A stretch of DNA of 64,000 nucleotides, taken from the NCBI GenBank assembly GCA_032718475.1, contig JAUCBJ010002587.1, forward strand, positions 1-64,000, given 5' to 3'. Below are positions 1 to 56,128 of the stretch, one piece after another. Each line of letters starts with the position of its first letter. The first letter of the stretch is position 1. Source of the DNA: Nemertoderma westbladi. Lineage: Eukaryota > Animalia > Xenacoelomorpha. A program made the position numbers and the translations under genes. The notes beneath the pieces are model-generated. The model was not told the DNA's origin, ran no database searches, and saw only the letters and a program-made list of their open reading frames with translations.

Positions 1-1396
1 TGCATTAAAGTGTTTAAATATAGATTATTCTATGCAATGTACATTTGCAGTATGGAGTCATCTGTGGTTCCATGGACAGAGACTGATATGTGAACATTAC
101 ATTTTTATTTTTTTCATATAGTTAGAATTTTAATTGGAAATTTGCCAAATTTCTCTATTTAACAAAATGATGTCTCGTACTCTAATAAAGCGAAAATGGT
201 GTCTCCATGGTTTCTTCCTGAGATCAGTTCATCCTGCGCCGTTTATCCCGTAAACAAATTAAATGGGAGAATTTGGAATAAAACACATACGATTTATAGG
301 TTTATTATTATTTGTTTAGTAAGACCTCGGCTTCTCCACCCTAGATTCTCGCCCCGGATTATAAATTATTGGCCAAGTTCTACTTAAAATGCCGAAGTAA
401 TTTAATTATTAGGTGATTAAGAATCGGAACCAGATGGTGACAGATAGGAGGATCGGAAACCCATCCGATTGTCCTGGTTGTCTCTGCCGAGAATTTAAAT
501 CCATTATAAAGTTTAATATTAAATAATTGTTGATACAACTTGAATATTTCATGTTATTCTTATTTATACATAATTACCACCAGACCACCTACAATGTGCC
601 TACCACAAATCACATGCTTACCACAACCGCATTCCACGTTGATATTTGAGATTATTAAATCAGTTTGAGTTATAAATTCCTCGACCCCTCGACCGACGCC
701 CTCGAACTTTAGACCGACGTTCGAGATCGCAACCAATAAGGTCGGGGTTATGTGAACACCTCACATCATTGTTTCCCGCACCATTAACAACATCATTGCT
801 ATAATCAATAATAGTGCAGTAAGTTCTATCTAATACAACACAGTCAGACAGACAATGGAGGTAGTGAAAGAAGCATGTATTTATTAACAATATTAATATA
901 GTGATACTATTGACCCCCAGTTCAACTCAATACATTTTAGTATTTAATATTATTAGTACGCACAATGTATGTCGACTTAGTTCCAGTGCGGTCCCTCCAG
1001 GACCTTATTACCCAGAGTAAACTCCAGTAGAATTAATTTAGCTAACATTTCCAGTAATACAGGTAGCTAAATGAAAATCAGTTTCCACCCGGAAGCACTG
1101 AGTTCTAGGGAAATTTGTCGTCATAATTTCTGAGTAATTCTTACTAATTATTAATTTAGCTACTGTCCTCAATTGCTAGGTAAATGAGTACTGTAGTTTC
1201 CCAAGGGAATTGTAGGTCTGGGGGGGCCGCACTGGAAATAAGTCGTCAGACTTTGTGAGTAATCCCTGGCCTAACGGCTCTACACACAAACGCCGTTGTT
1301 CTTCCTATGGGATTGGGCCTTTTGGGTTAAATTCTGGTGCTATTTAGCGTGTGTTTGATGCTGAAAGTAAATCCCACTCAAATCCCACAATCATCA

Positions 1397-1615
1397 GGGT
1401 GTAACCGATACGCCGGAAACCGACAACCAACACCGACAACCATTATTAAAGCTAATTAATGGTAATTGTCAATTTAGGGAAAGGAACAGGTTACAGTGGA
1501 AGGTTATTCTAATCAAAACAATAAACGAGAGTGACGAACTAAGGTTACATTTACAACTGCTGTTGACGGCAGTGGTTGTCGGCTGTCGGTTGTCGACGTA
1601 GCGTTTACACACCCC
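1397..1615. mobile_element. Degenerate MITE-like element
   Basis: Left gggtgtaaccgatacgccggaaaccgacaacc is an imperfect reverse complement of right ggttgtcggctgtcggttgtcgacgtagcgtttacacacccc. Confidence 0.55.
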
Positions 1616-3391
1616 GTTCATCATATTATTCAACTGGTAGTTTATATTCTCATAAAAATATTAGAGTGTAAAGACCATACTGTACGCCACCCACATGTTT
1701 TCTGCGTTTTCTGGAAAGTTTCCTGCAATTGTCAACACTCCAATACAAACTATGTAGATGATCGTTACTCGCAGTGTCGATGTCATTATTCCAAGTATTT
1801 TCTTTTTAACCTATGAATGTTATAGGATAATTATTATATAATAACAATACAACATATTCCATCCCTCCGTCTCATCTAAGAGACAGACGACTGGTTACGA
1901 TTGTCCGAGTACATCTTTCCGCCACAACTATGATCTTCTAAACAACCTTGTTTAGAAAGCCATGGTTGAAGACAGCAAAAACTCGTTGGTACAAATGTCT
2001 TGTCAACGTTGATATTGAGTCGAGATCTATGAGATGGAAATCAGAGAAATGCCGGTCATCATGGTTGTGTTTGTGTATTGAATACGATCATCGTTGATAG
2101 AAATTATATAAAACTTAGAGAGTCGCTGGCCGAATTCATGTCTCCAAGCAGGAAGATGGAGGAATTAACCTAGCGTAGGTTCCTAGTGGTTTACATCACC
2201 CGATCTGTCTAAATTGTTTTGAATAAAGTTGATTTCCTGAATAAAGTTGATTCCCTCTTCGAGTCGAATACTTGATATTGAATGATACTTACAAACTTAC
2301 CTCAATAATAATAGGTTGAAGATGCCAATGAATGTTTTTAGTATAATAAAAGTGGTGTTTAAGTTTATTTTTACAAACTTAAATACTTTTTAAAAAAGTA
2401 TTGAACTTTTCATTCTTACCTAATGATGTCGAAACAATCCTTGAGTACTTTGATCTTATACCATCTGCCAATTAAATATTAATGAGCTATAGACCTAAGG
2501 TAAACCGAACCATGACTCCTTTTATGTTATCTTAGGTATAAAAAAACTGCTCAAACCTTTGATCTTATAAAGTTACTGTAGACCCTAAGAGCTTAAATTA
2601 AATTTACAGGCATTTCAGTATAATATGAAAATCTTAATAAAGTTTGGCCAAAATGTACACATCTTAACACAACCCAATGTGAGACAAAGAGGATGGTGGA
2701 ATGAACTCAAATCCCATCTCGGCGAATTTATGTATATTGTTATCAATTTAGAGAAAGGAGCAGGTTACAGTGACACGATATTCTAACCAAATCAATAAAC
2801 TAAAGTCTACAGGTTCCAGTTTTATTTTTGAAAGTAATCAGCTGTTGTTTTCGTCGATTTTCCCCTGAAGAAAGATGGATGTTATTTGCGTCGAAAGCCC
2901 CCCCCCCCCCCCCCCCCCCCTCGCCCCCCGGTCATATTTTGGAAATATTAATTAAAATGTATCTTGGATTAATTGTTACCTCTGATCCAGGTGAGGTCTC
3001 GGGTTCGGGGATGGCGTTGGTATTCGTGGTCGTGCTCGAGCTCGAGACATTATGCTCAGTACTGAATGTATGCAAAGTATGTATTATACTGTATGTTTAG
3101 TTGCGGTTAAATGCTATTGGGTTTCTCCCTCCCTCCAACTATTTTGATTAACATTATTTTATCCCCTAAAATTTTATTTTAACTTTTAGTTGCAATTTAT
3201 TGACCCTCCTATCTACAACTTAACCGGGACCAGTACCGGTAGGTCTACAGCTGAGTGTTAATTATCTGATTACAGAATTATATGATCTTATCATTTATAT
3301 GTTACAGTGTTAGGCCAGTAGGCATACTACAGGTAGGCTTAGGCCCCTACACTTTTTGGAATTTGTGATTCAATTGCTAAGTCTGTAAGTT

Positions 3392-4328
3392 ATGTCTAAA
3401 GGGAAGGGTGAAGATAAATTAACTCGTATTGCTATAGTTAACAACGACCGCTGTAAACCGAAAAAATGTCACCAAGAATGCCGGAAATCGTGTCCGGTAG
3501 TTCGTATGGGTAAACTTTGTATCGAAGTAATGCCCACAGATAAACTCGCGACCATATCTGAAGAACTCTGCATCGGGTGCGGTATCTGCGTAAAGAAATG
3601 TCCTTTCGACGCGATAACCATAATTAATCTACCAAGTAACCTTGAGAAGGATACCACCCACCGGTACAGCGCTAATTCCTTCAAACTCCATCGACTTCCG
3701 ATCCCCCGGCCAGGCGAAGTTCTCGGTTTGGTCGGGACCAACGGAATAGGGAAGTCCACCGCTCTGAAGATCCTCGCTGGCAAGCAGAAACCCAATCTAG
3801 GTCGCTTCGATAACCCGCCCGACTGGCAAGAGATTCTAACGCACTTCCGCGGTTCCGAGTTGCAAAACTACTTCACAAAGATATTGGAGGATGACTTAAA
3901 GGCGGTTATAAAACCCCAGTACGTAGACCAGATTCCCAAAGCGGTGAAGGGGACAGTTCGATCGATCCTGGATCGTAAGGACGACACCGGTACGCAGAGA
4001 CAAGTTTGCGAGCAACTCGATCTTATGAACGTGTTGGATCGTAATATAGAGGATTTATCCGGAGGTGAGTTGCAACGGTTCGCTATCGCCGTCGTCTGCG
4101 TACAGAACGCGGATATCTACATGTTCGACGAACCGAGTTCCTACCTCGATGTTAAACAGCGACTGCGGGCCGCCACTGCAATACGGACGCTACTCTCGCA
4201 GGACAAGTATATAATCGTGGTGGAACATGATCTCTCTGTATTGGATTACCTCAGCGACTTCATATGTTGTTTATACGGCATCCCGGGGGCGTACGGTGTG
4301 GTTACCATGCCATTCAGTGTGAGGGAAG
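3392..4328 (+). CDS. ABCE1: ABCE1/RLI1 ribosome-recycling ATPase, coding exon 1
   Basis: N-terminal Fe-S domain ([15 protein letters not shown]...[12 protein letters not shown]), Walker [10 protein letters not shown], signature LSGGELQ, Walker B YMFDEP. Donor GAAG|GTAAGT at 4329 (phase 1); the ORF-track tail past ...FSVRE is intron read-through. Confidence 0.97.
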
Positions 4329-4778
4329 GTAAGTTAAATGGTTACACAATGCAATATATTGGGTTTTTGAGGCAGGTGTAATTCCGAGCACCGAGTGTAA
4401 CTCTACCTGGTATGAGGTTCTAATTTTGCGTTCTAACATCCGCATTCTACCTATACTCACTAAACTCAACAATTAGACTTGTCTCTTTACACCCAAATAC
4501 TGACCTCACTTAATCTAAATACCACACATTATCAGAGAAGGCAAGTTACAGTTTCCTTAAAGGAATTACCGGTACCGAGCAAATATTTTGATTGTCATTA
4601 TTAATATTTTTATTTATTTATTTCTAAAGGACATTTGATTCAATGATATTAACTCAGTTTAAAAATAAAAGTATATTTTATCATATTTGGTTGTTGCATC
4701 GCATTGCTTTCTCCCACTATGATCAAATAATTCCCAGTGATATTGTCTGATAAATTATTGTTATTTCTTATTTTTCAG

Positions 4779-5662
4779 GTATAAATATATTTCTGGATGG
4801 ATTTGTTCCAACGGAAAACTTACGTTTCAGAGAATCTTCGTTGGTGTTTAAAATGTCGGAAACCGCGGACCAGGAAGAAATAAAAAGAATGCGACGTTAT
4901 GGCTATGGAAATATGACCAAGAAAATGGGAGAATCTTTTAACCTAGAGGTGGAGGAGGGGACCTTCACAGACTCGGAGATCCTGGTGATGTTGGGGGAGA
5001 ACGGAACTGGTAAAACCACGTTCATCCGGCTGTTAGCGGGTCGGTTGGAACCGGATTCCGGGGACGAAGCGCCGCGGTTGAACGTCTCCTACAAACCCCA
5101 GAAGATCTCCCCGAAGTCGGAGGGCACAGTGCGTCAACTGCTACACACAAAGATCCGCGACGCCTACATCCACCCCCAGTTCGTGACGGACGTGATGAAG
5201 CCGCTTCTTATAGACCAAGTGATTGATCAGGAGATTAAGAACCTCTCTGGTGGGGAGTTGCAACGAGTCGCGATCGCGTTGTGCCTCGGAAAACCCGCTG
5301 ATGTCTACCTAATCGACGAGCCTTCGGCCTACCTCGACTCGGAGCAGCGTATAGTCGCCGCCAAGGTCATCAAACGATTTATCCTGCACGCCAAGAAGAC
5401 GGCGTTCGTGGTTGAACACGATTTCATTATGGCGACTTATCTCGCCGATCGAGTGATCTGCTTCGAGGGTATTCCCTCCATAGACGCCAAAGCCAGGAGT
5501 CCGCAATCCCTGCTCGGTGGAATGAATAAATTTCTTCAATCTCTAGAGATCACATTCCGAAGGGACCCTAACAATTATCGCCCTCGAATTAATAAACTTC
5601 ATTCAGTTAAGGATTCCGAGCAAAAACATGCTGGGAATTATTTCTTCTTGGAGGACATTTAA
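4779..5662 (+). CDS. ABCE1: ABCE1 coding exon 2 (second NBD, to stop)
   Basis: Acceptor tttttcag|GT at 4778 restores the conserved [22 protein letters not shown]. Walker [22 protein letters not shown]; C-terminus GNYFFLEDI*. Spliced CDS is 1821 nt = 606 aa. AATAAA at 5820 and 5895. Confidence 0.97.
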
Positions 5663-6159
5663 GTGAATATTTAGGTTATTTATTGAAGGTCTATAGTTCT
5701 AGACCTAGTGCTATATCGGCAGTGGGTTATTGATGTTATTTGGTCATCAGTGGCATATTGTTGAATTACCAAATACAGTAAAGCTAATAATATAATAAGA
5801 TGGAATTCATTATTCCTGAAATAAATATATCTATTTTTTTTAATATTTGCCGTTTTCATGTAATATGTTTAGTGCCAACGAGTATAATACAAGAAATAAA
5901 TATAACAAGTATGGGAAATTATTTATTTCTAAAGTCCTATCATATCACTATTATTTATATTATAAATTATAGTAAAAGTAAGTAAGATATTCAAAAATAT
6001 GTAATCACCACACCACGTCCTGATTACGAAAAGAAAACTGTGTCCAAGTGTAAGTATCAATGAAACGAAAATGATAATAATGTAACATAGTTTTACACCT
6101 AATTATCACACTCAATACAATCATTTTATAATAACAATACAATAATTGTAACTAAGTAA

Positions 6160-7512
6160 TTAATTCGTTTGTAATAGTTCCTTCACACATTTCGTAAAAA
6201 TGTCGCCTCTATTTTCTGCGTTATGGTAGCAATCAAAACTAGAGCAAGCTGGAGACAACAAAACGTCGCAATTATCATCTCCAGCCAACTCAAAGGCTTT
6301 CTTCACAGCATCTTGCATATCCTTTATTTCTAGAATTGTTGGAATGGTCCCAGAGAAAGCTGACACTAATGCCAGATTATTTTTTCCAATACAAATAGCG
6401 GCTTTCACGGTTTTCTTCACGATGTCTTTGATAAGTGAGTAATCATTCCCTTTATCGATTCCCCCGACTAGCCAAATAACCTTTCCGAGGCATCTCAGCG
6501 CCATGGCAGCCGAGTCCACATTGGTAGCTTTAGAGTCGTCGTAAAATCTGATGGAACCGATTGAACCGACGTGTTGCATTCTATGTGGTAGACCCTCAAA
6601 CCGTGCAATCGTGTGTCGTATTGACTCGATCGGTACACCCAAAAGGACCGCTGTTTGTATAGCCATCATGGCGTTCATCCCATTATGGTAGCCGGGTAAC
6701 CTAAACGAAGCTAGCTCAATAATCGATTTGTATTCCTGGATATGTATTTGTTCTTCGTTTAAATAAACTTGGGAACTCCTACTGTCAGTCAATGAGATCG
6801 GATATTTCTTCGGCGCAACGACTTCTGGCATGTACTTCCGAGTGAATATATCGTCTGCATTGTAAACTAAGGTGTCACGTGATGTCATATTGTTTAGGAT
6901 CTTAAATTTAGTTTTCGCGTAGTTGGCCATTTCATTATTGTAGCGATCTAGATGGTCTGCCGTTATGTTTGTGATACAAGCGATATTCGGATGGAACTTA
7001 ATAACATCCTCTATTTGGTAACTGCTTACTTCCAGCACGTGGTACTTGTACTCTTCTGTCTGTGATTGTAACATCTGTGAGCACCAACTAACCCCAATGT
7101 TTCCGGCAATTGTGACCTGGAATCCCGCGTCTTTGAGGAGTTGATAGATTAGTCGCGTCGTTGTTCCCTTGCCGTTAGTTCCCGTCACCGCTATTATAAA
7201 TCCATTCGCGTATCTCGAAGCGAACTCCAACTCTCCTACCACTGGTATGTTGTGGTTCCTTATGGATCGCATAATTTGTGAGTTGTTAGCGATTCCGGGG
7301 CTCTTGATGACTTCATCACCAACTAGTATTGTTTCCAATGTATGCTTGCATTCTTCGTATTCAATTTCATTTTCTTCTAGTCGCAACTTATAATCATCCA
7401 ATATTTCTCGTTTGTCTGATACAAACACTTTAAAACCCTTCTCTTTTGCCAACATAGCTGCACCATAGCCGCTCTCCCCACATCCAAGAATTACCTTTGT
7501 ATTGGTAGACAT
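6160..7512 (-). CDS. murD: UDP-N-acetylmuramoyl-L-alanine--D-glutamate ligase (MurD), bacterial type, intronless, 450 aa
   Basis: All MurD motifs in order: ILGCGESG (Rossmann-like), KSPGI, P-loop VTGTNGKGTT, GNIG, LEVSSYQ, NITADHLDRY, K...K, GYHNGMN, GLPHR, DDSKATN, GGIDKG, LLSPACSSFD, RG. Full length, no stops or frameshifts. Confidence 0.95.
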   Translation of the reverse strand: MSTNTKVILGCGESGYGAAMLAKEKGFKVFVSDKREILDDYKLRLEENEIEYEECKHTLETILVGDEVIKSPGIANNSQIMRSIRNHNIPVVGELEFASRYANGFIIAVTGTNGKGTTTRLIYQLLKDAGFQVTIAGNIGVSWCSQMLQSQTEEYKYHVLEVSSYQIEDVIKFHPNIACITNITADHLDRYNNEMANYAKTKFKILNNMTSRDTLVYNADDIFTRKYMPEVVAPKKYPISLTDSRSSQVYLNEEQIHIQEYKSIIELASFRLPGYHNGMNAMMAIQTAVLLGVPIESIRHTIARFEGLPHRMQHVGSIGSIRFYDDSKATNVDSAAMALRCLGKVIWLVGGIDKGNDYSLIKDIVKKTVKAAICIGKNNLALVSAFSGTIPTILEIKDMQDAVKKAFELAGDDNCDVLLSPACSSFDCYHNAENRGDIFTKCVKELLQTN

Positions 7513-8462
7513 TCCTTACGTATTCCGCACTGGTTTCCCAATGAAAGCTGTTATGTCTGTTTTAGTTTAATTAAGGCTAACTCTTGTGTTAATTAGTTGT
7601 AGTTGTTTGTGTTTAATGAATACCTGTACCGATTAACGTTAGGCTGGTGACCAACGACTGACTACTTCCACTACTTTATGAAGACTGTTAATCCGGTTCG
7701 CTGTTATTAACTACAGTCACAAATAATATTGTACTGTATGTATCTTAGTTGTCCATGGAAAACTAAACACTGTCATTTATTTTTTATTTGTCTTAAGTTT
7801 GCCATATTGCAAAATATTAACTATGAGAAATAACTATATAATATTTTTCCCTATTTTGTGCTGTCATTTTCGAAAATTAGGCTGATTTATCTACCAGACT
7901 TCACTTATATTGGTTGACGTGCTTAAATTATATTGGCTGTTGTAGTTGTACCTTATTCTCATAATAATTATAAATTATTATTATAAGGCATTAATTAATC
8001 GACCTACTACAAATAATTATTTTCACAAATTTTTAACAAAAAAATCACTAAAATATTTAGGTTTCAGTAAATATTATTAATCGCCATTAAATTAAAATAT
8101 ATTAATTATTATCACTAAATAAGAAAAAGGAGAGGGATACAGTAGCACGTTATTCTAACAAAAACAAAAAACCTAATTCAATAGAATAGGTTGTTATTTT
8201 TGGTGATAACAAAAATACATTTTAGTGATTTAATTTTTGCTTTATAGTGAAAAATATGAAATACTAGTAATAAATTTAGGGTTCGCCAAGGGCCGTGTCC
8301 ACTGCAACTTTAAAATCAAAGGAAGACCCTAGTTCACTATAAAATCATTAAATCGAATTCGATTCATTTAATCCGAACGATCTGAACATTTTGTCAAGCT
8401 CGTGACCAGAATCTTAATGTACAGAAGTAGTCCATACTGGAGACGGGGGGGGGAAGGTGAAT

Positions 8463-8550
8463 GAGCAGGTTTCAGTGGCACATTATTCTAACCAGAACAT
8501 TAAGCGAAAGTTAATAGGGTACAGTATTATTTTTGAGACTAATCAGCTGT
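8463..8550 (+). repeat. Dispersed repeat family copy
   Basis: Motif gagcaggtt(a/t)cagtggcac.ttattctaac recurs at about 1483, 2757, 8136, 8463 and, reverse-complemented, at about 19455-19490. Confidence 0.65.
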
Positions 8551-8641
8551 TACTCTGGAGTCCCGAATAGACGGGGCGACGGCTATTAATTAAAAAAAAA
8601 ATCCACCCAAAATTATCCCGTCTATTCGGGACTCCAGAGTA
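8551..8641. mobile_element. Tiny MITE/hairpin with TA flanks
   Basis: TA-ctctggagtcccgaatagacggg ... cccgtctattcgggactccagag-TA: a perfect ~25 bp inverted repeat. Confidence 0.7.
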
Positions 8642-8713
8642 CTTGCGTCGAGTTGCCGCAAGAGAGGATTCAATTTTTGAATTACTGACCATATCTTTGT
8701 TTATCATTTACAG

Positions 8714-8878
8714 ACTCTATATGTCCCTGATCCCGATGCTTGCCTTCTACTAGAACCCGTTCCAACCACTCCAACTAATTTTTCACCAGCTGCCATTCCT
8801 GAGGAAGATGATGACGGATTTGGTAAACCAATGTCGTCTCGATTTACAGATCTACCAACAGTTACTGCCAGTAAACCA
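8714..8878 (+). CDS. OXR1: OXR1/NCOA7-family gene, exon A (just after LysM domain)
   Basis: tttacag|ACT; encodes TLYVPDPDACLL...TVTASKP, resembling the VLYVPDP that follows the LysM domain in OXR1. Phase-0 donor CCA|GTTAGT at 8879 fits the next exon. Confidence 0.75.
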
Positions 8879-10097
8879 GTTAGTTGATTAGTTCACATCT
8901 ACCAACAGTTAGTGCCAGTAGACCAGTTAGTTATTTGTTCACATATACAAACAGTTACTGCCAGTAAACCAGTAAGTTTATTTGTTTACATATACAAACA
9001 GTTACTGTCAGTAAACCAGCAAGTTGATTTGTTCACATCTACCAACAGTTACTGCCAGTAAACCAGTAAGTTGATTTGTCCACATCTACCAACAGTTACT
9101 GCCAGTAAACCAGTTAGTTGATTAGTTCACATCTACCAACAGTTAGTGCCAGTAGACCAGTTAGTTATTTGTTCACATATACAAACAGTTACTGCCAGTA
9201 AACCAGTAAGTTTATTTGTTTACATATACAAACAGTTACTGCCAGTAAACCAGTTAGTTGATTTGTTCACATCTACCAACAGTTACTGCCAGTAAACCAG
9301 TAAGTTGATTTGTTCACATATACAAACAGTTACTGCCAGTAAACCAGTAAGTTGATTAGTTCACATCTACCAACAGTTACTGTCAGTAAACCAGTAAGTT
9401 GATTTGTTCACATCTACCAACAGTTACTGCCAGTAAACCAGCAAGTTGATTAGTTCACATCTACCAACAGTTAGTGCCAGTAAACCAGTAAGTTGATTTG
9501 TCCACATCTACCAACAGTTACTGCCAGTAAACCAGTTAGTTGATTTGTTCACATCTACCAACAGTTAATGCCAGTAAACCAGTAAGTTTATTTGTTCACA
9601 TATACAAACAGTTACTGCCAGTAAACCAGTAAGTTGATTTGTCCACATCTACCAACAGTTACTGCCAGTAAAACAGTAAGTTGATTTGTCCACACTACCA
9701 ACAGTTACTGCCAGTAAACCAGTTAGTTGATTTGTTCACATCTACCAACAGTTAGTGCCAGTAAACCAGTAAGTTGATTTGTCCACATCTACCAACAGTT
9801 ACTGTCAGTAAACCAGGAAGTTGATTTGTCCACATCTACCAACAGTTACTGCCAGTAAACCAGTTAGTTGATTTGTTCACATCTACCAACAGTTAGTGCC
9901 AGTAAACCAGTAAGTTGATTTGTCCACATCTACCAACAGTTACTGCCAGTAAACCAGTAAGTTTATTTGTTCACATCTACCAACAGTTACTGCCAGTAAA
10001 CCAGTTAGTTGATTTGTTCACATCTACCAACAGTTACTGCCAGTAAACCAGTAAGTTGATTTGTCCAGGTCTACCAACAACTGCCAATAAACCAGTA
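8850..10097 (+). repeat. 47-bp tandem array (~26 copies) spanning the exon A splice donor
   Basis: Unit atctaccaacagttactgccagtaaacca|gt(a/t)agttgatttgttcac; the first copy begins inside exon A. Confidence 0.95.
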
Positions 10098-10124
10098 ATC
10101 TAATTTTTCCACGTATACCAGTTT

Positions 10125-10604: not shown

Positions 10605-10794
10605 GTAGGTGGTACGATACACCGTTTGTAGTGTTTCTTCTGAAACCTACCTCACTACACTTCTTCATGGATATCATTTTGTATAGTGGTGGTGGTGGAC
10701 TATGTCTGCTACAACCACATCCAAATATCAAACAGGACTTATATGTTTAAACTTGTGTCTATTATTATATATTAATATGACTATATATCCCTTA

Positions 10795-12048
10795 CTGTTT
10801 TCTCTTCCAAGACACTGTATCTGGTACTACACTGTATCTGGTACTTTTTTATCTTCCAGGGCACTGTATCTGGTTTACTACACTGTATCTGGTACTACAC
10901 TGTATCTGCTGGTACTACACTGTATCTGGTACTTTTTTCTCTTCCAGGGCCCTGTATCTGTTACTATACTGTATCTGGTATTTTTTTCTCTTCCAGGCCC
11001 CTGTATCTGGTACTACACTGTATCTGGTACTTTTTTCTCTTCCAGGGCCCTGTATCTGGTACTACACTGTATCTGGTACTTTTTTCTCTTCCAGGGCCCT
11101 GTATCTGGTACTACACTGTATCTGGTACTGTTAGCTATGGCATTGTATCTTACTAGGTACTACAATGTGTCCGGTCTGTTTTCTCTTCCAGGGCCCTGTA
11201 TCTGGTACTACACTGTATCTGGTACTTTTTTCTCTTCCAGGGCCCTGTATCTGGTACTACACTGTATCTGGTACTGTTAGCTATGGCACTGTTATCTTAC
11301 TAGGTATTACAATGTGTCCGGTATGTTTTCTCTTCCAGGGCACTGTATCTGGTACTACATTGTATCCGGTATGTTTTCTCTTCCAGGGCACTGTATCTGG
11401 TACTTTTTTCTCTTCCAGGGCCCTGTGTCTGGTACTACACTGTATCTGGTACTGTTATCTCTTACATGGCACTGTATCTTACTAGGTACTACAATGTGTC
11501 CGGTCTGTTTTCTCTTCCAGGGCACTGTATCTGATGGTACTACATTGTATCCGGTATGTTTTCTCTTTCAGGGCACTGTATCTGGTACTACACTGTATCT
11601 GGTACTGTTAGCTATGGCACTGTATCTTACTAGGTACTACAATGTGTCCGGTCTGTTTTCTCTTCCAGGGCACTGTATCTGATGGTACTACATTGTATCC
11701 GGTATGTTTTCTCTTTCAGGGCACTGTATCTGATGGTACTACATTGTATCCGGTATGTTTTCTCTTTCAGGGCACTGTATCTGATGGTACTACATTGTAT
11801 CCGGTATGTTTTCTCTTTCAGGGCACTGTATCTGGTACTACACTGAATCCGGTACTGTTTTCTCTTACATGGCCCTGTATCTGGTACTACACTGTTTCCG
11901 GTCTGTTTTCTCTTCCAGGGCACTGTATCTGGTACTTTTTTCTCTTCCAAGACACTGTATCTGGTACTACACTGTATCTGGTACTGTTTTCTCTTACATG
12001 GCGCTATATCCGGACTATTTTCTCTTACAGGGTACTGTGTCCGGGACC
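10795..12048 (+). repeat. Complex minisatellite spanning the exon C splice acceptor
   Basis: Built from ttttctcttccag|ggc(a/c)ctgtatctggtact plus 18-bp acactgtatctggtact(ac) subunits; the last copy is the true acceptor plus the GTVSGT codons. Confidence 0.9.
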
Positions 12049-22964: not shown

Positions 22965-25900
22965 TTTAGAGTTGACCATCGTATTCCATTTTATTTCTAG
23001 AGGTCACCATCTATATTCCATTTTATTCACAGATGGGATCCTCTCTCTCTATTCCATTTTATTCACAGAGGTGACCATCTCTCTCTATTCCATTTTATTC
23101 ACAGAGGTGACCATCTCTCTCTATTCCATTTTATTCACAGAGGTGACCATCTCTCTCTATTCCATTTTATTCACAGAGGTGACCATCTCTCTCTATTCCA
23201 TTTTATTCACAGAGGTGACCATCTCTCTCTATTCCATTTTATTTACAGAGGTGACTTATACACAGAGGTGACCATCTTTTCTCTTCCATTTTATTCACTG
23301 AGATGACCATCTTCTCTATTCCATTTTATTCACATAGGTGACAATCTTCTCTATTCAATTTTATTCACAGAGTTGACCCTTCTCTCTCTATTCCATTTTA
23401 TTCACAGAGGTGACCATCTATCTATATTTCATTTTATTCACAGAGGTGACCATCTTCTCTATTCCATTTTATTCACATAGGTGACAATCTTCTCTATTCC
23501 ATTTTATTCACAGATGGGAACCTCTCTCTCTATTCAATTTTATTCACAGGGGTGACCATCTTCTCTATTCCATTTTATTCACAGAGGTGACCATCTTCTC
23601 TATTCCATTTTATTCACAGAGGTGACCATCTATCTCTATTCCATTTTATTCACAGAGGGGAGAATCTTCTCTATTCCATATTATTCACAGAGGTTAGCAT
23701 CTCTATTCCATTTTATTCACAGAGGTGACCATTTTCTCTATTCCATTTTATTCACAGAGGTGACAATCTTCTCTATTCTATTTTATTCACAGAGGTGACA
23801 ATCTTCTCTATTCCATTTTATTCACAGAGGTGACCATCTTCTCTATTCCATTTTATTCACAGAGGTGACCATCTTCTCTATTCCATTTTATTCACAGAGG
23901 TGACAATCTTCTCTATTCCATTTTATTCACAGAGGGGACAATCTTCTCTATTCCATATTATTCACAGAGGTTAGCATCTCTATTCCATTTTATTCACAGA
24001 GGTGACAATCTTCTCTATTCCATTTTATTCACAGAGGTGACAATCTTCTCTATTCCATATTATTCACAGAGGTTAGCATCTCTATTCCATTTTATTCACA
24101 GAGGTGACAATCTTCTCTATTCCATTTTATTCACAGAGGTGACCATTTTCTCTATTCCATTTTATTCACAGAGGTGACAATCTTCTCTATTCTATTTTAT
24201 TCACAGAGGTGACAATCTTCTCTATTCCATTTTATTCACAGAGGTGACCATCTTCTCTATTCCATTTTATTCACAGAGGTGACCATCTTCTCTATTCCAT
24301 TTTATTCACAGAGGTGACCATCTATCTCTATTCCATTTTATTCACAGAGGGGACAATCTTCTCTATTCCATATTATTCACAGAGGTTAGCATCTCTATTC
24401 CATTTTATTCACAGAGGTGACCATCTTCTCTATTCCATTTTATTCACAGAGGTGACAATCTTATCTATTCTATTTTATTCACAGAGGTGACAATCTTCTC
24501 TATTCCATTTTATTCACAGAGGTGACCATCTTCTCTATTCCATTTTATTCACAGAGGTGACAATCTTCTCTATTCCATATTATTCACAGAGGTTAGCATC
24601 TCTATTCCATTTTATTCACAGAGGTGACCATTTTCTCTATTCCATTTTATTCACAGAGGTGACAATCTTCTCTATTCTATTTTATTCACAGAGGTGACAA
24701 TCTTCTCTATTCCATTTTATTCACAGAGGTGACCATCTTCTCTATTCCATTTTATTCACAGAGGTGACAATCTTCTCTATTCCATATTATTCACAGAGGT
24801 TAGCATCTCTATTCCATTTTATTCACAGAGGTGACAATCTTATCTATTCTATTATATTCACAGAGGTGACAATCTTCTCTATTCCATTTTATTCACAGAG
24901 GTGACAATCTTCTCTATTCCATTTTATTCACAGAGGTGACAATCTTCTCTATTCCATATTATTCACAGAGGTTAGCATCTCTATTCCATTTTATTCACAG
25001 AGGTGACAATCTTCTCTATTCCATTTTATTCACAGAGGTGACCATTTTCTCTATTCCATTTTATTCACAGAGGTGACAATCTTCTCTATTCCATTTTATT
25101 CACAGAGGTGACCATCTTCTCTATTCCATTTTATTCACAGAGGTGACCATCTTCTCTATTCCATTTTATTCACAGAGGTGACCATCTATCTCTATTCCAT
25201 TTTATTCACAGAGGGGACAATCTTCTCTATTCCATATTATTCACAGAGGTTAGCATCTCTATTCCATTTTATTCACAGAGGTGACCATCTTCTCTATTCC
25301 ATTTTATTCACAGAGGTGACCATCTTCTCTATTCCATTTTATTCACAGAGGTGACCATCTATCTCTATTCCATTTTATTCACAGAGGGGACAATCTTCTC
25401 TATTCCATATTATTCTCAGAGGTTAGCATCTCTATTCCATTTTATTCACAGAGGTGACAATCTTCTCTATTCCATTTTATTCACAGAGGTGACCATTTTC
25501 TCTATTCCATTTTATTCACAGAGGTGACAATCTTCTCTATTCTATTTTATTCACAGAGGTGACAATCTTCTCTATTCCATTTTATTCACAGAGGTGACCA
25601 TCTTCTCTATTCCATTTTATTCACAGAGGTGACCATCTTCTCTATTCCATTTTATTCACAGAGGTGACCATCTATCTCTATTCCATTTTATTCACAGAGG
25701 GGACAATCTTCTCTATTCCATATTATTCACAGAGGTTAGCATCTCTATTCCATTTTATTCACAGAGGTGACCATCTTCTCTATTCCATTTTATTCACAGA
25801 GGTGACAATCTTCTCTATTCTATTTTATTCACAGAGGTGACAATCTTCTCTATTCCATTTTATTCAAAGAGGTGACCATCTTCTCTATTCCATTTTATTC

Positions 25901-28900
25901 ACAGAGGTGACAATCTTCTCTATTCCATTTTATTCACAGAGGGGACAATCTTCTCTATTCCATATTATTCACAGAGGTTAGCATCTCTATTCCATTTTAT
26001 TCACAGAGGTGACCATCTTCTCTATTCCATTTTATTCACAGAGGTGACCATCTATCTCTATTCCATTTTATTCACAGAGGGGACAATCTTCTCTATTCCA
26101 TATTATTCACAGAGGTTAGCATCTCTATTCCATTTTATTCACAGAGGGGACAATCTTCTCTATTCCATTTTATTCACAGAGGTGACAATCTTCTCTATTC
26201 CATTTTATTCACAGAGGGGACAATCTTCTCTATTCCATTTTATTCACAGAGGTGACCATCTTCTCTATTCCATTTTATTCGCAGAGGTGACCATCTATCT
26301 CTATTCCATTTTATTCACAGAGGGGACAATCTTCTCTATTCCATATTATTCACAGAGGTTAGCATCTCTATTCCATTTTATTCACAGAGGGGACAATCTT
26401 CTCTATTCCATTTTATTCACAGAGGTGACAATCTTCTCTATTCCATTTTATTCACAGAGGGGACAATCTTCTCTATTCCATTTTATTCACAGAGGTGACA
26501 ATCTTCTCTATTCTATTTTATTCACAGAGGTGACAATCTTCTCTATTCCATTTTATTCAAAGAGGTGACCATCTTCTCTATTCCATTTTATTCACAGAGG
26601 TGACAATCTTCTCTATTCCATTTTATTCACAGAGGGGACAATATTCTCTATTCCATATTATTTACAGAGGTTAGCATCTCTATTCCATTTTATTCACAGA
26701 GGTGACAATCTTCTCTATTCCATATTATTCACAGAGGTTAGCATCTCTATTCCATTTTATTCACAGAGGTGACCATCTATCTCTATTCCATTTTATTCAC
26801 AGAGGTGACCATCTATCTCTATTCCATTTTATTCTCAGAGGTGACCATCTATCTCTATTCCATTTTATTCACAGAGGTGACCATCTATCTATATTCCATT
26901 TTATTCACAGAGGTGACCATCTATCTATATTCCATTTTATTCACAGAGGGGACAATCTTCTCTATTCCATTTTATTCACAGAGGTGACAATCTTCTCTAT
27001 TCCATTTTATTCACAGAGGGGACAATCTTCTCTATTCCATTTTATTCACAGAGGGGACAATCTTCTCTATTCCATATTATTCACAGAGGTTAGCATCTCT
27101 ATTCCATTTTATTCACAGAGGTGACAATCTTCTCTATTCCATATTATTCACAGAGGTTAGCATCTCTATTCCATTTTATTCACAGAGGTGACAATCTTCT
27201 CTATTCCATTTTATTCACAGAGGGGACAATCTTCTCCATTCCATTTTATTCACAGAGGGGACAATCTTCTCTATTCCATATTATTCACAGAGGTTAGCAT
27301 CTCTATTCCATTTTATTCACAGAGGTGACAATCTTCTCTATTCCATTTTATTCACAGAGGTGACCATCTTCTCTATTCCATATTATTCACAGAGGTTAGC
27401 ATCTCAATTCTATTTTATTCACAGAGGTGACAATTTATCTCTATTTCATTTTATTCACAGATAATTCCATTTTATTCACAGAGGGGACAATCTTCTCTAT
27501 TCCATTTTATTCACAGAGGTGACCATCTTCTCTATTCCATTTTATTCGCAGAGGTGACCATCTATCTCTATTCCATTTTATTCACAGAGGGGACAATCTT
27601 CTCTATTCCATATTATTCACAGAGGTTAGCATCTCTATTCCATTTTATTCACAGAGGGGACAATCTTCTCTATTCCATTTTATTCACAGAGGTGACAATC
27701 TTCTCTATTCCATTTTATTCACAGAGGGGACAATCTTCTCTATTCCATTTTATTCACAGAGGTGACAATCTTCTCTATTCTATTTTATTCACAGAGGTGA
27801 CAATCTTCTCTATTCCATTTTATTCAAAGAGGTGACCATCTTCTCTATTCCATTTTATTCACAGAGGTGACAATCTTCTCTATTCCATTTTATTCACAGA
27901 GGGGACAATATTCTCTATTCCATTTTATTCACAGAGGTGACAATCTTCTCTATTCCATTTTATTCACAGAGGGGACAATATTCTCTATTCCATATTATTT
28001 ACAGAGGTTAGCATCTCTATTCCATTTTATTCACAGAGGTGACAATCTTCTCTATTCCATATTATTCACAGAGGTTAGCATCTCTATTCCATTTTATTCA
28101 CAGAGGTGACCATCTATCTCTATTCCATTTTATTCACAGAGGTGACCATCTATCTCTATTCCATTTTATTCTCAGAGGTGACCATCTATCTCTATTCCAT
28201 TTTATTCACAGAGGTGACCATCTATCTATATTCCATTTTATTCACAGAGGTGACCATCTATCTATATTCCATTTTATTCACAGAGGGGACAATCTTCTCT
28301 ATTCCATTTTATTCACAGAGGTGACAATCTTCTCTATTCCATTTTATTCACAGAGGGGACAATCTTCTCTATTCCATTTTATTCACAGAGGGGACAATCT
28401 TCTCTATTCCATATTATTCACAGAGGTTAGCATCTCTATTCCATTTTATTCACAGAGGTGACAATCTTCTCTATTCCATATTATTCACAGAGGTTAGCAT
28501 CTCTATTCCATTTTATTCACAGAGGTGACAATCTTCTCTATTCCATTTTATTCACAGAGGGGACAATCTTCTCTATTCCATTTTATTCACAGAGGGGACA
28601 ATCTTCTCTATTCCATATTATTCACAGAGGTTAGCATCTCTATTCCATTTTATTCACAGAGGTGACAATCTTCTCTATTCCATTTTATTCACAGAGGTGA
28701 CCATCTTCTCTATTCCATATTATTCACAGAGGTTAGCATCTCAATTCTATTTTATTCACAGAGGTGACAATTTATCTCTATTTCATTTTATTCACAGATA
28801 ATTCCATTTTATTCACAGAGGTGACCATCTTCTCTATTCCATTTTATTCACAGATGGGATCCTCTCTCTCTATTCTATTTTATTCACAGAGGTGACCATC

Positions 28901-31900
28901 TATCTATATTCCATTTTATTCACAGAGGTGACCATCTTCTCTATTCCATTTTATTCACAGAGGTGACCATCTTCTCAATTCCATTTTATTCAAAGAGGTG
29001 ACCATCTTCTCTATTCCATTTTATTCACAGAGGTGACCATCTATCTCTATTCCATTTTATTCACAGAGGTGACCATCTCTATTCCATTTTATTCACAGAG
29101 GTGACCATCTTCTCAATTCCATTTTATTCAAAGAGGTGACCATCGTCTCTATTCCATTTTATTCACAGAGGTGACCATCTATCTCTATTCCATTTTATTC
29201 ACAGATAATTCCATTTTATTCACAGAGTCTCTCTCTATTCCATTTTATTCACAGAGGTGACCATCTATCTCTATTCCATTTTATTCACAGAGGTGACCAT
29301 CTATCTCTATTCCATTTTATTCACAGAGGTGACCATCTTCTCTATTTCATTTTATTCACAGAGGTGACCATCTCTCTCTATTCCATTTTATTCACAGAGG
29401 TGACCATCTCTCTCTATTCCGTTTCATTCACAGATAATTCCATTTTATTCACAGAGGTGACCATCTATCTCTTTCTTTTTATTCACAGAGGTGACCATCT
29501 CTCTCTATTCCATTTTATTCACAGAGGTGACAATCTTCTCTATTCCATTTTATTAACAGAGGTGACCATCTCTCTCTATTCCATTTTATTCACAGAGAAT
29601 TCCATTTTATTCACAGAGGTGACCATCTTCTCTATTTCATTTTATTCACAGAGGTGACCATCTATTTCTATTCCATTTTATTCACAGAGGTGACCATCTA
29701 TCTCTATTCCATTTTATTCACAGAGGTACCATCTTCTCTATTCCATTTTATTCACAGAGGTGACCATCTCTCTCTATTCCATTTTATTCACAGAGAATTC
29801 CATTTTATTCACAGAGGTGACCATCTATCTCTTTCTTTTTATTCACAGAGGTGACCATCTCTCTCTATTCCATTTTATTCACAGAGGTGACAATCTTCTC
29901 TATTCCATTTTATTCACAGAGGTGACCATCTCTCTCTATTCCATTTTATTCACAGAGAATTCCATTTTATTCACAGAGGTGACCATCTTCTCTATTTCAT
30001 TTTATTCACAGAGGTGACCATCTTCTCTATTCCATTTTATTCACAGAGGTGACCATCTCTCTCTATTCCATTTTATTCACAGAGGTGCCATCTCCTCTAT
30101 TCCATTTTATTCACAGAGGTGACCATCTCTCTCTTTTCCATTTTATTCACAGAGGTGACCATCTATCTCTATTCCATTTTATTCACAGAGGTGACCATCT
30201 ATCTCTATTCCATTTTATTCACAGAGGTGACCATCTTCTCTATTCCATTTTATTCACAGAGGTGACCATCTCTCTCTATTCCATTTTATTCACAGAGAAT
30301 TCCATTTTATTCACAGAGATGACCATATATCTTTATTACATTTTATTCACAGAGGTGACCATCTATCTCTATTCCATTTTATTCACAGAGGTGCCATCTC
30401 CTCTATTCCATTTTATTCACAGAGGTGACCATCTCTCTCTATTCCATTTTATTCACAGAGAATTCCATTTTATTCACAGAGATGACCATCTATTTCTATT
30501 CCATTTTATTCACAGAGGTGACCATCTATCTCTATTCCATTTTATTCACAGAGGTGCCATCTCCTCTATTCCATTTTATTCACAGAGAATTCCATTTTAT
30601 TCACAGAGGTGACCATCTATCTCTATTCCATTTTATTCACAGAGGTGACCATCTATCTCTATTCCATTTTATTCACAGAGGTGACCATCTATCTCTATTC
30701 CATTTTATTCACAGAGGTGACCATCTTCTCTATTCCATTTTATTCACAGAGGTGACCATCTCTCTCTATTCCATTTTATTCACAGAGAATTCCATTTTAT
30801 TCACAGAGATGACCATCTATCTCTATTCCATTTTATTCACAGAGGTGACCATCTATCTCTATTCCATTTTATTCACAGAGGTGGCCATCTTCTCTATTCC
30901 AATTTATTCACAGAGCTGACCATCTCTCTCTATTCCATTTTATTCACAGAGAATTCCATTTTATTCACAGAGGTGACCGACCATCTATCTCTATTCCATT
31001 TTATTCACAGAGGTGACCATCTTCTCTATTCCATTTTATTCACAGAGGTTACCATCTCTCTCTATTCCATTTTATTCACAGAGAATTCCATTTTATTCAC
31101 AGAGGTGACCATCTATCTCTATTCCATTTTATTTACAGAGGTGACCATCTCTCTCTATTCAATTTTATTCACAGAGGTGACCATCTTTCTCTATTCCATT
31201 TTATTCACAGAGGTGACCATCTATCTCTATTCCATTTTATTTACAGAGGTGACCATATCTCTCTATTCAATTTTATTCACAGAGGTGACCATCTATCTCT
31301 ATTCCATTTTATTTACAGAGGTGACCATATCTCTCTATTCAATTTTATTCACAGAGGTGACCATCTATCTCTATTCCATTTTATTCACAGAGGTGACCAT
31401 CTATCTCAATTCCATTTTATTCACAGAGGTGACCATCTCTATTCCATTTTATTCTCAGAGGTGACCATCTATCTCTATTCCATTTTATTCACAGAGAATT
31501 CCATTTTATTCACAGAGATGACCATCTATCTCTATTCAATTTTATTCACAGAGGTGACCATCTATCTATATTCCATTTTATTCACAGAGGTGACCATCTA
31601 TCTCTATTCCATTTTATTCACAGAGGTGACCATCTATCTCTATTCCATTTTATTCTCAGAGGTGACCATCTATCTCTATTCCATTTTATTCACAGAGGTG
31701 ACCATCTATCTATATTCCATTTTATTCACAGAGGTGACCATCTATCTATATTCCATTTTATTCACAGAGGTGACCATCTATCTCTATTCCATTTTATTCA
31801 CAGAGGTGACCATCTATCTCTATTCCATTTTATTCACAGAGGTGACCATCTATCTCTATTCCATTTTATTCACAGAGGTGACCATCTATCTATATTCCAT

Positions 31901-35240: not shown

Positions 35241-35345
35241 TTAATATCAATAAGATATCGCAGGAGGTCTTGGATTGCTGAACCAATATCATTTCCTATT
35301 ATAAATGGAGATACTCATTTGTTGAATCCTCAACAAATAGTCAGT
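35241..35345 (+). CDS. OXR1: OXR1-family exon F (entry to TLDc domain)
   Basis: tttattatag|TTA; 35 codons LISIRYRRRSWIAEPISFPIINGDTHLLNPQQIVS, aligning to the P.L...S.LL...QI segment that starts TLDc. Phase-0 donor AGT|GTAGGT. Confidence 0.75.
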
Positions 35346-44300: not shown

Positions 44301-44481
44301 GTTTAGTCAGTGTAGGTAGCCTACCTCTAGGGTGTTTAGTCTTAGTCAGTGTAGGTAGCCAACCTCTAGGGTGTTTAGTCAGTGTAGGTAGCCAACCTCT
44401 AGGGTGTTTAGTCAGTGTAGGTAGCCAACCTCTAGGGTGTTTAGTCTTAGTCAGCGTAGGTAGCCTACCTCTAGGGTGTTT
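35338..44481 (+). repeat. 30/36-bp satellite, ~9.1 kb (~280 copies), spanning the exon F splice donor
   Basis: Unit tagtcagt|gtaggtagcc(a/t)acctctagggtgtt with an optional tagtct insert; the first copy overlaps the last codons of exon F. Confidence 0.97.
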
Positions 44482-44741
44482 ATCCAACTGTTTGGACCAT
44501 ATTATCATCGTGTTACTATTATAGTTGGTTTAGAACAATAGTCAATGTACAACCAATCACGAAGATTAAGTTTTTGTTTAGATTGTTTAGAAAGTTAGTC
44601 AATGTGCTCTTAGCCAATGGCAAGGCCTAGAATTATTTGTTTAGTTTGTTTAGAAATTTCGTCACATGTACTTCACCAATCACAAGATTTATAATTTGCC
44701 TGAGGCCCAGAGATGCACACTTTGCAGAGATTGCAGTGAGA

Positions 44742-45966: not shown

Positions 45967-45969
45967 CTA

Positions 45970-53765: not shown

Positions 53766-54014
53766 TATTATATAGGAGGATAAATGAATCAATTTGTGAA
53801 TTATTACACCACCTAAATAATGAAACAGTGCGCTTTTGGGGGTGAAATAAATGTTTTTGCGCGTGATTTAATGAAGCTTGATTTTGAAACCAAATGTATG
53901 CCATACGTTTGTGGCCATTCCACGGCCAAAATTATTATTTTATTTATTAACAATGCACTTAAAATGGTTCTTGGTAAAGATGGAAATTAAAACCTGTAAC
54001 TTTACTCATTGCAG

Positions 54015-54167
54015 ATGTGCAGACAACTTCCTGCGCGCACTGAAGGTCAGACATGGCAACTGCTGTACAGCACGTTCCGGGACGGATTCAGCCTAGCAAC
54101 CCTATACCGTTGCAACCAATCAATAGACTCATGCGTTTTAATTCTCGTCAAAGACAGTGACGATTGC
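54015..54167 (+). CDS. OXR1: OXR1-family exon G (TLDc domain, first part)
   Basis: cattgcag|ATG; MCRQLPARTEGQTWQLLYSTFRDGFSLATLYRCNQSIDSCVLILVKDSDDC is typical TLDc (LP.R..G..W.L.YST..GFSL.TLYR). Donor TGC|GTAAGT. The remaining TLDc exons were not found in the window. Confidence 0.93.
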
Positions 54168-54203
54168 GTAAGTGATTGGCAATTTGGGTCCCTCATGACC
54201 TAC

Positions 54204-56128
54204 ACTGCCGTGTAATGTGATAAGACCGTAAGTCGCATTTTTTCACTTTTTCTGGGTCTAAAAAATGCGCTCTATCTAATGGTATAATCGATAACTAATC
54301 GATCGTAGTTCTCGAGATATGCAATGTAGAAAGGCTGTAAGTTACAACATATGTATATGTTACAATGGTAAAAGACCGTATAAGTGCAATACAAAAGACC
54401 GCAACTACTTAAATGTATTCAAAAAACCGTAAGTCACAAGACTTGGGGTGTTTTGTCATTGCATAGATAATAAGAAAACGCACATACGGTTTTATTGAAA
54501 TATGTGTCTTTTGACTTGCGGTTTTTTACTATTAGCAGAAAAGGCGCGAAATTTCACTAAGTGACTTGCGGTGTTTTATCATCATATAGCTAACCTGCCT
54601 ACTAGAGAATAGACATTAGAATTGTTGCATTAAGATAAACCCTAAGTAAACGTCACTACATTTTAATATTTATTTATGATTATATATATCCTTGTAGTGG
54701 TAACAGTTTTGTTCTCATATTTTTTATTGCGTATTGTTGATTGATGGTAATAGTAAAATACTATTCCACTGACCTATTTCTCTATAATTAAATTTTTGAA
54801 TTTTTTGTAATTCATCTGTATCTTTGAGTCGGGTTAATTGGGAACCCCGAGATTTTGTGACTTTTCCTAAAATTTAATTTAATTAGAACAAACGCCATTT
54901 ACTTGGCTATCTATGTTAGTTTTCGTGTTGTGGTCCCTTTCTGGGGCACCAATCTGCAGTATTTTTGTGCTAAATTTTCAAAAGTTTGTTATGGCGTACT
55001 AAAATTAATTTATTTGCGGTATATAGCGGTTTTTGGATGCTGATCACGATTATAGAACTCAAATATAACATTCGAGAACATTTTTGGCAATTTTGAATGT
55101 GCCCCCTGGTGCACGAAAAAAACAAGCAGTGCAAATATCATATTAAAAATGCTTGTATGTAATAACTGTTGTTATTAAATCCATTAGTCACCTGAGGTCA
55201 ACCCGCTCTACTAAAACTAAGAATCCCTTCTAAAGTGCTTTTAAGCGAAATCAAAATGTAAAAAAGTCATAATGTTAAGTCCAGCCAGAGGCTGACCAAC
55301 TAATAGTCAAAGAGACTAGATTCTATCGAACATGACATTGGATATGAAATCACGGACCTCGAAAACCACCATAATGAAAATTATAGCTCTGTGGTGTAAC
55401 TTCCCTCATGCCACACCCTCACATTATTAACCAACCAAACCCCATACGGGCAGTTTTATGTGGCAATGTTTAAACTTTCAAGGCAATATTCTCGGAAAGA
55501 AATTTTTCACGCAAAAACACGAACTCCTCTGTCATTTAATAGTTTTTTTTTTGTTATTTTCGCTTCATATAACAGGTAATTTAATAAACTTAGACAAATT
55601 TCGGGCAGTTTTTTTTATTTCATAATATTTCCCCGTTCCCAAGTTTATTTTTGTTTATGCAACCACTTTGAGTTATTTAGAAATTTAAAACCGCAGGGGG
55701 GGTTGCCCCCCCCCCCCCCCCCCCCATAATTTATGCATTAAATTTATACAATTCAAAAACACCGCAACTGACAGACTTGCGGTGTTTTGTCATTGTGACA
55801 TTTGTTTTGTCATTGTGACATTTGTTTTGTCATTGTGACATTTGTTTTGTCATTGTGACATTTGTTTTGTCATTGTATCGAATGTATTTACATACAGGTT
55901 GTACAATGCAAAAACACCGTAAGTACAAAAAATAACCCTGAAGTAAATATATTAATGGAAAGTGAAAAATAATCACGTAGAAAAATTTCCCACCCCAAAT
56001 TGCGTTGGGTTATAGTAGGTACTAGTAATTTACGGACATTTTAAACCAACAATCTGAAGGCAAACAGTAATTTGCGTTTTACTCGAAATTACTTTTTGTG
56101 ACTTGTGGTTTTTACATTGCACGGCAGT
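54204..56128. mobile_element. TIR element with subterminal motif repeats
   Basis: actgccgtgtaatgtgataagaccgtaagtc ... gacttgtggtttttacattgcacggcagt; repeated aa(g/c)accg(t/c)aagtc motifs in both orientations; internal 20-bp tandem (ttttgtcattgtgacatttg x4) at about 55785-55876. Confidence 0.65.

Follow-up and report, generated by a model that had tools for sequence, protein, structure and literature searches.

A bacterial-type murD gene lies between host genes in an animal genome and is under purifying selection

In the mealybug Planococcus citri, transferred murA-F and ddlB genes complement the peptidoglycan synthesis of Moranella in a three-genome pathway, and the donors of its transferred genes include Bacteroidetes close to Cardinium (PMC5664097, PMC7154730). 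Ants carry transferred murA, ddl and murQ genes from Wolbachia, Sodalis-like bacteria and Spiroplasma (PMC13320244), and for murA the authors caution that an overlapping host exon on the opposite strand makes expression hard to judge. Ascidian rusticalin contains a transferred L-Ala-D-Glu peptidase domain (PMC6339383), and reduced intracellular symbionts of a tunicate keep most of their wall genes (PMC3851785). In Xenoturbella bocki, whose lineage was considered for the host because it is missing from our sampling, 56 candidate transfers are reported (PMC11521371); the main text of that paper has no match for 'peptidoglycan' or 'Bacteroid', and 12 of its 13 supplements have none for murD, muramoyl, peptidoglycan, Amoebophilus or Cardinium, its gene trees sitting in separate online material. 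We found no murD transfer outside insects in the literature searched, which includes few subscription papers and where supplementary transfer lists may hold such a gene.

The gene studied here is a murD in a 64-kb stretch of animal DNA; the whole of that stretch is called the window (Table 1). How does it compare with these systems? The protein resembles bacterial MurD in its three-domain fold, its length, its score against the murD family profile and most of its contacts to UDP-MurNAc-L-Ala (UMA), ATP, metal and D-Glu. It differs in that the gene stands alone between animal genes with a host-like CpG content, and in having Gly116, Ala432 and a cysteine-bearing insert. The mealybug likewise encodes a bacterial murD in its own genome, with Bacteroidetes donors near Cardinium and a proposed role in the symbiont wall; the likeness is one of description, and here the host is not an arthropod, as judged from ABCE1 trees, and murD is the one component known so far. 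The ants likewise hold single transferred genes of the peptidoglycan pathway, and overlap on the opposite strand likewise complicates the reading of expression, but their enzymes and donors are others, and identity to the donors averages about 75%, against 48% protein identity for the window MurD. Rusticalin is likewise a bacterial or phage-derived domain tied to the L-Ala-D-Glu bond, in tunicates and other marine animals; it would cut the bond that MurD makes, is fused to a host domain, has introns and occurs in several phyla.

Table 1. Positions of the features discussed, numbered from the first letter of the window
Feature	Position	Strand	Remarks
ABCE1 coding exon 1	3392..4328	+	Host gene
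ABCE1 coding exon 2	4779..5662	+	Poly(A) tail behind 5825 in run X2
Stretch under one 2143-nt X2 contig	5795..7937	not known	Left intergenic part, all of murD, 425 nt upstream of the ATG
murD CDS	6160..7512	-	Intronless, ATG start, 450 aa plus stop; profile matches, AlphaFold, Foldseek
C-terminal motif (residues 420-440)	6195..6255	-	Also matched by a second X2 contig (823 nt), 10 differences in 61 nt
Codon 432, Ala replacing D-Glu-pocket Phe/Tyr (E. coli Phe422)	6217..6219	-	Ala in 0 of 462 homologues
Codon 116, Gly replacing P-loop Ser/Thr (E. coli Ser116)	7165..7167	-	Gly in 0 of 462 homologues
Multi-copy host repeats upstream of murD	8127..8641		Summed depth hundreds to thousands in DNA runs
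First OXR1/NCOA7-type exon in the window	8714..8884 (end approximate)	+	Joined in X2 to an upstream exon outside the window
Frame with TLDc-domain exon, probably part of that OXR1-type gene	54000..54212	+	PF07534, E 4.8e-9

An initial annotation of this DNA had described a full-length, intronless MurD ORF of 450 codons, and this description is correct. Pfam finds all three MurD domains (MurD_N, Mur_ligase_M and Mur_ligase_C), and the murD equivalog profile TIGR01087 is matched at 374.6 bits against a cut-off of 211.95. The protein fails the murC profile (141 bits, cut-off 335) and the other 23 listed families that have higher cut-offs. Its AlphaFold model, built on a 70-row alignment, has a mean pLDDT of 92.5, with no N-terminal extension before the first strand. 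When the model is searched with Foldseek, the top rows are all MurD, at TM scores up to 0.88, and MurC scores about 0.67; the ESM Atlas returns Bacteroidota and Bacillota MurD clusters only. The N-terminal peptide singled out earlier (...EECKHT) is present in the ORF. The surroundings are likewise as described: the flanks are AT-rich (25.8% and 32.2% GC, against 42.0% in the ORF), 497 nt separate the stop codons of the spliced ABCE1 (5662) and murD, and 1201 nt, given before as 1.2 kb, lie between the murD ATG and the OXR1 exon at 8714. Rfam has no match anywhere in the 64-kb window.

Does the gene belong to the animal? Four of the eight listed sequencing runs contain 62-97% of the words of positions 4700-8800, and all four are from organism A. 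Run X1 is possibly the source of the window; without it, the runs that hold murD come from two further studies, X3 and X4 being one DNA sample. Contig depth on murD is close to that on its host neighbours in all three DNA runs, as expected of a gene embedded in an animal-type chromosome: 24.8 in X1 (ABCE1 22, OXR1 exon contig 25), 77.9 in X4 (ABCE1 66-70) and 25.9 in X3 (ABCE1 19.6-35.7; host depths listed, 19.6, 35.7 and 28.4). An X3 contig (5888-8167) extends 272 nt to the left and 655 nt to the right of the ORF, an X1 contig (6046-8579) links murD to host repeats, and an X2 contig, from a third study, crosses the left junction. No single short-read contig of the DNA runs joins the ABCE1 and murD coding sequences; the pieces tile with overlaps of 30 nt. 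Runs X6 and X7 (organisms B and C) gave nothing over 5700-8050 at 80%, which is not evidence of absence. We conclude that murD is real and belongs to the animal, between host genes, and that an assembly chimera, one of the refuting outcomes foreseen in the initial annotation, is very unlikely.

Searched by blastn and tblastn at E<1e-3, the flanks (1-3391, 5663-6159 and 7513-8713) match none of 113 loci, 111 of which are bacterial murD loci. For this reason no remnant of mraY, ftsW or murG is seen, in agreement with the earlier remark that such neighbours are missing. The ratio of observed to expected CpG is 1.08 in murD, 1.26 in host ABCE1 and 0.38-0.83 in four donor-clade genes; CpG use has shifted to a host-like value, consistent with long residence. 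The repeats upstream of murD contain a perfect 25-nt inverted repeat (8551-8575 and 8617-8641) and are probably MITE-like. They sit just upstream of the end of the murD RNA, where they could act as a source of promoter sequence or be a trace of the insertion.

The protein sequence is under purifying selection. Twelve coding differences between runs fall among 40 of the 94 difference rows; 11 are synonymous and one is Ala381Gly, and no indel is listed, while the first 100 nt of the ORF may hold further differences outside the listed rows. These counts give a pN/pS of 0.025 (P 5e-7, with 78% of random changes non-synonymous; 6e-6 with transitions weighted fourfold). The list of X2 differences in murD is complete, and all four are synonymous. 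The X4 contig covering 6046-7359 differs at 12 of 1314 nt (0.9%) without a gap, and ten of these differences are listed in the ORF; if both others were non-synonymous, the ratio would be 3:11, still with P<=1e-4. Over the upstream flank (7412-8239), X4 differs at 25 of 828 nt (3.0%) with 28 gap letters. In ABCE1, which served as control, all 11 listed differences are synonymous. Selection is thus shown statistically, within the species, and the neutral pattern of change that the initial annotation thought might accompany a silent gene is not what we find.

Is murD transcribed? None of the runs listed is recorded as RNA. Run X2 is recorded as 'DNA?', but it skips the ABCE1 intron (4329-4778) at its GT..AG borders, has no cover over 4334-4711 and ends loosely in poly(A) behind ABCE1. 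It behaves as a poly(A) RNA run. Its signal over murD is neither intronic pre-mRNA nor genomic DNA, because either would cover the ABCE1 intron, which is empty. The check on poly(A) RNA proposed in the initial annotation thus yielded an RNA-like contig across the whole of murD, whereas the sense strand is not given by that contig. Neither end of the stretch 5825-7937 shows a poly(A) end for murD, and 7991-8050 has no cover in X2. A minus-strand AATAAA at 5684 would fit a murD 3' end within the ABCE1 UTR. The 425 nt upstream of the start codon contain four ATGs. Contig depths do not rank expression. Antisense read-through from ABCE1 remains a rival source of the RNA, because the X2 contig touches the ABCE1 3' end and contigs carry no strand. 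On these grounds murD is likely transcribed.

The neighbouring host genes are both on the plus strand. The spliced ABCE1 product has 606 aa. The OXR1/NCOA7-type gene spans 8714 to at least 54212, and its exons before the TLDc exon are assigned to it by their motifs. The exon at 8714 is joined to one outside the window, so ABCE1 and murD likely lie, tail to tail, in one OXR1 intron of more than 8.7 kb. A spliced leader was considered for the 25 loose letters before 8710 and ruled out: hand translation shows that they belong, in frame, to the coding exon of OXR1 that comes before. ABCE1 itself (3264-5825), an essential gene with a single coding intron, likely sits inside an intron of OXR1, with the same orientation, where that intron divides the LysM-like region; ABCE1 may be a retroposed or intron-stripped copy. 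Its gene body (3392-5662) has no CpG depletion at the ratio of 1.26 given above, which suggests little gene-body methylation. Tandem arrays at 23167-34343, 35338-44482, 44735-50117 and 56977-64000 fill introns of the OXR1-type gene (35 nt x 320, 33 nt x 257, 66 nt x 19, 23 nt x 183 and 45 nt x 156), and smaller arrays at 8850-10098 and 10793-12044 seem to be made of duplicated exon-edge sequence. Broken frames at 50650-51570 (+) look by eye like a decayed LINE reverse transcriptase; three pieces had no Pfam match at E<0.1.

Which animal is the host? ABCE1 is 83-87% identical to that of many animals and closer to none. In trees whose named rows do not include xenacoelomorphs, it is sister to Clavelina and other rows (98/91 with 50 rows, 97/98 with 23), and a grouping with hemichordate and urchin is marginally rejected (p 0.033). 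Eight of 44 rare ABCE1 residues are common with Clavelina, against six with the next rows. By this gene, the host is an animal and likely a tunicate, a placement that is not settled.

The homologues of murD are bacterial, most of them unnamed, with no animal orthologue among the matches. The best bacterial identity is 48% among 7997 scored candidates; nothing exceeds that value among the best 150 of 1.84 billion representatives, and the best GTDB match is 47% among 80 loci from 23 of 64 scanned parts. The near-identity to a bacterium that would have spoken for contamination is therefore missing from these searches. The exact protein is absent from the protein collection searched, as are the host's own proteins. 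The best match, P0001, groups with Amoebophilaceae: its nearest cluster holds Amoebophilus asiaticus, and Cardinium proteins fall in the same clade. With rows taken from the best matches and no non-Bacteroidota outgroup, a 68-row tree (LG+G4) and a 37-row mixture-model tree (LG+C20) both place the window protein as sister to the Amoebophilus/Cardinium clade (100/96 and 95/88), on a long branch (0.87 and 1.25). Placing it instead beside four free-living Cytophagales costs 17.8 log units and is not rejected (AU p 0.079). A Cytophagales origin is predicted firmly within the rows tested, and an Amoebophilaceae donor is favoured by the trees, as the initial annotation had suspected in naming Bacteroidota and its symbionts Cardinium and Amoebophilus.

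Some candidates fell away. A first tree paired the protein with P0001 alone, under a long-branch warning, and the pairing dissolved with better sampling; no starred set was obtained for the window gene in a FastTree run on 213 rows. A viral source was rejected, with only two partial loci at 38-44%. In the donor-clade loci examined, an ORF lies no more than about 30 nt upstream of murD, and an ftsW-like ORF adjoins murD where the contig reaches. In L083 (9066-12547), L085 and L088, murD lies between an ORF for a membrane protein of about 300 aa and the ftsW-like ORF; these loci stand outside the full dcw cluster seen in L089 (names assigned by eye). P0262, a EukProt protein of 736 aa, fuses a PF02517 domain to a MurD 61% identical to P0001; the fusion mirrors that bacterial arrangement, so P0262 probably stems from symbiont DNA among the data of a protist.

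The initial annotation had credited the protein with every MurD motif. This is true of most residues and fails at residue 116 of the P-loop. The ligand contacts of E. coli MurD and their roles, among them the contact of Ser116 to ADP and the hold of Phe422 on the D-Glu gamma-carboxylate, are taken from PMC9780078 and PMC4816537. Residues were mapped to E. coli MurD by an alignment starting at 50, and those before 50 by motif. The P-loop G-x-x-G-K-[ST]-T is not intact: G114, K115 and T117 are kept, and position 116 is Gly. Among 462 distinct homologues this residue is Thr in 397, Ser in 65 and Gly in none, and no difference is listed at codon 116 in runs X1-X4. ATP contacts are retained at G114, K115, T117, N280, R311 and D326, and UMA contacts at G73 and N138; E13, S14 and D33 agree with the Bacteroidota consensus. 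The equivalents of the metal and catalytic residues E157, H183, K198, N271, R302 and D317 are all present (E161, H187, K202, N280, R311 and D326), K202 corresponding to the carbamylated Lys198. In the D-Glu pocket (equivalents of T321, K348, S415, L416 and F422), T330, K354, S425 and F426 are kept and Ala432 stands where 458 of the 462 homologues have Phe or Tyr; R435 is also retained. Ser116 contacts Mg as well, Phe422 holds the carboxylate through its backbone, and E157 has a metal or catalytic role.

Are these changes unusual? The window protein departs at 4 of 116 tightly conserved columns, as do 84 of the 462 homologues at four or more, which is within the range of the family. In a comparison with the 43 rows of the donor clade, its departures number 27 in 203 tight columns, and no row of that clade has more than 11. 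A cysteine-bearing insert before the LLSPAC motif occurs in none of 395 proteins checked, seven of which have Cys one place nearer. Clustering of substitutions in the acceptor loop (420-436) appeared among 194 close homologues, with 5 of 11 departures, and was dropped; with 462 or 43 rows it is not significant (p 0.38 and 0.15). A change such as Ser/Thr to Gly in the P-loop is expected to weaken the use of ATP and Mg. In FolC-type ligases, which belong to the same superfamily, Gly likewise follows the P-loop Lys, and these enzymes are active; Gly116 therefore need not abolish catalysis. Gly116 and Ala432 could each reduce or redirect it. From the residues retained, the protein is predicted to stay an ATP-dependent ligase that adds glutamate or a close analogue to UDP-MurNAc-L-Ala.

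A second murD-like contig in X2 matches the window only over the C-terminal motif. When its loose ends are hand-translated in the frame of murD, they go on as the C-terminus of a MurD. Before LLSPAC it reads GEDDCEILL where the window has GDDNCDVLL, a pattern found in 0 of the 395 proteins. Of all the relatives encountered, this one is the closest. Its possible origins are a paralogue in the host, a bacterium living today that is related to the donor, and carry-over from a different library.

What could the gene be for? The domesticated transfer proposed in the initial annotation accords with the presence of murD in runs of two further studies, the host-like depth, the RNA-like contig and the preponderance of silent changes, and we are highly confident that murD is a real, selected transfer. 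As a working model, murD resides in the host genome of separate samples, with host genes on either side and host-like flanks. On the trees, it would stem from a single, old transfer of DNA whose donor belonged to the Amoebophilaceae or to a close sister lineage; no bacterial gene survives beside it. Its own poly(A) RNA would start from a promoter near 7940, inside the OXR1 intron, and overlap the ABCE1 3' end. Purifying selection, for which the evidence is statistical, would maintain a protein that, to judge from its retained residues, has UDP-MurNAc-L-Ala, ATP/Mg and a dicarboxylic amino acid as its ligands and, like MurD, makes the amide bond by way of an acyl-phosphate, Gly116 and Ala432 perhaps making the reaction slower or the acceptor site looser. 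Because animals do not make the substrate unaided, a resident bacterium or further transferred mur genes would provide it; the 64-kb window holds no other mur gene. By analogy with what is proposed for mealybugs, the host would supply or govern one step of symbiont wall synthesis. That the protein is a domesticated MurD-type ligase, acting on UDP-MurNAc-L-Ala that a resident bacterium supplies or will use, is the reading we favour, at about even odds.

Several other accounts must be weighed against this ligase. The protein might be translated and domesticated as a binder, a weakly catalytic or non-catalytic sensor or sequesterer of UDP-MurNAc-L-Ala or of muropeptides shed by resident or ingested bacteria, and so tune immunity or tolerance. 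Gly116 in the P-loop beside intact UMA-site residues would suit such a role, as would the presence among the solved relatives of plant MurE-like PAP11, a repurposed, structural Mur protein. Aphid amiD and ldcA1, too, are proposed in PMC7154730 to clear fragments of the symbiont wall. Yet a pure binder has no need of K115, E161, H187, K202, R311, D326, T330 and K354, all of which are kept, and FolC chains, from ligases active with Gly at the P-loop position, match this region; we think a binder quite improbable. An enzyme with a new job, ligating an amino acid to a host metabolite or using a non-standard acceptor, would account for the two unique changes at ligand contacts and the long branch. 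Re-use of a family should also produce a diverged second copy, such as this animal probably has, and the want of a companion mur gene within 64 kb points the same way. Against it, the residues that contact UMA and the D-Glu alpha-carboxylate are unchanged and the acceptor loop shows no significant clustering, and we consider a new job unlikely.

The two remaining accounts deny the protein any use. In one, the insertion is genuine but inert and its RNA is read-through from ABCE1, in keeping with a strandless contig continuous with the ABCE1 3' end. A relic of this kind should not have 11 of 12 changes silent, no listed coding indel and a divergence threefold below that of the upstream flank, nor a frame of 450 codons still open at only 48% identity to the nearest bacterium; it is very improbable. 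In the other, the gene is an assembly chimera or co-sequenced bacterial DNA. No single DNA contig spans the coding sequences of both neighbours, and X1 may be the window's own source, but the same junctions and host-like depth recur in another study's DNA, a contig of a third study crosses the left junction, no bacterial gene flanks murD, unlike in the tightly packed donor-clade loci, and neither the 7997 candidates nor the best 150 of 1.84 billion exceed 48%. We give an artefact hardly any credence.

No sign that an animal and a bacterium are on the way to an organelle-like union is better than host-encoded genes for peptidoglycan synthesis. The published cases that we found are insects, and a murD that is under selection and likely expressed in an invertebrate unrelated to them suggests that this route is a wider one. 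The gene points to a past or present symbiosis of Amoebophilaceae type in this animal, and predicts either further mur genes or a symbiont without murD. It is also a natural experiment, in which selection has kept a Mur ligase that lacks the P-loop hydroxyl present in every one of the 462 homologues compared. Tentatively, and with more doubt than confidence, we suggest that a non-insect animal, possibly a chordate (tunicate), turned a symbiont MurD into a small selected family with a re-tuned P-loop and acceptor pocket, which builds or edits the peptidoglycan stem peptide of a resident bacterium. If this is true, it would mean host control of the bacterial wall from the synthetic side, outside insects.
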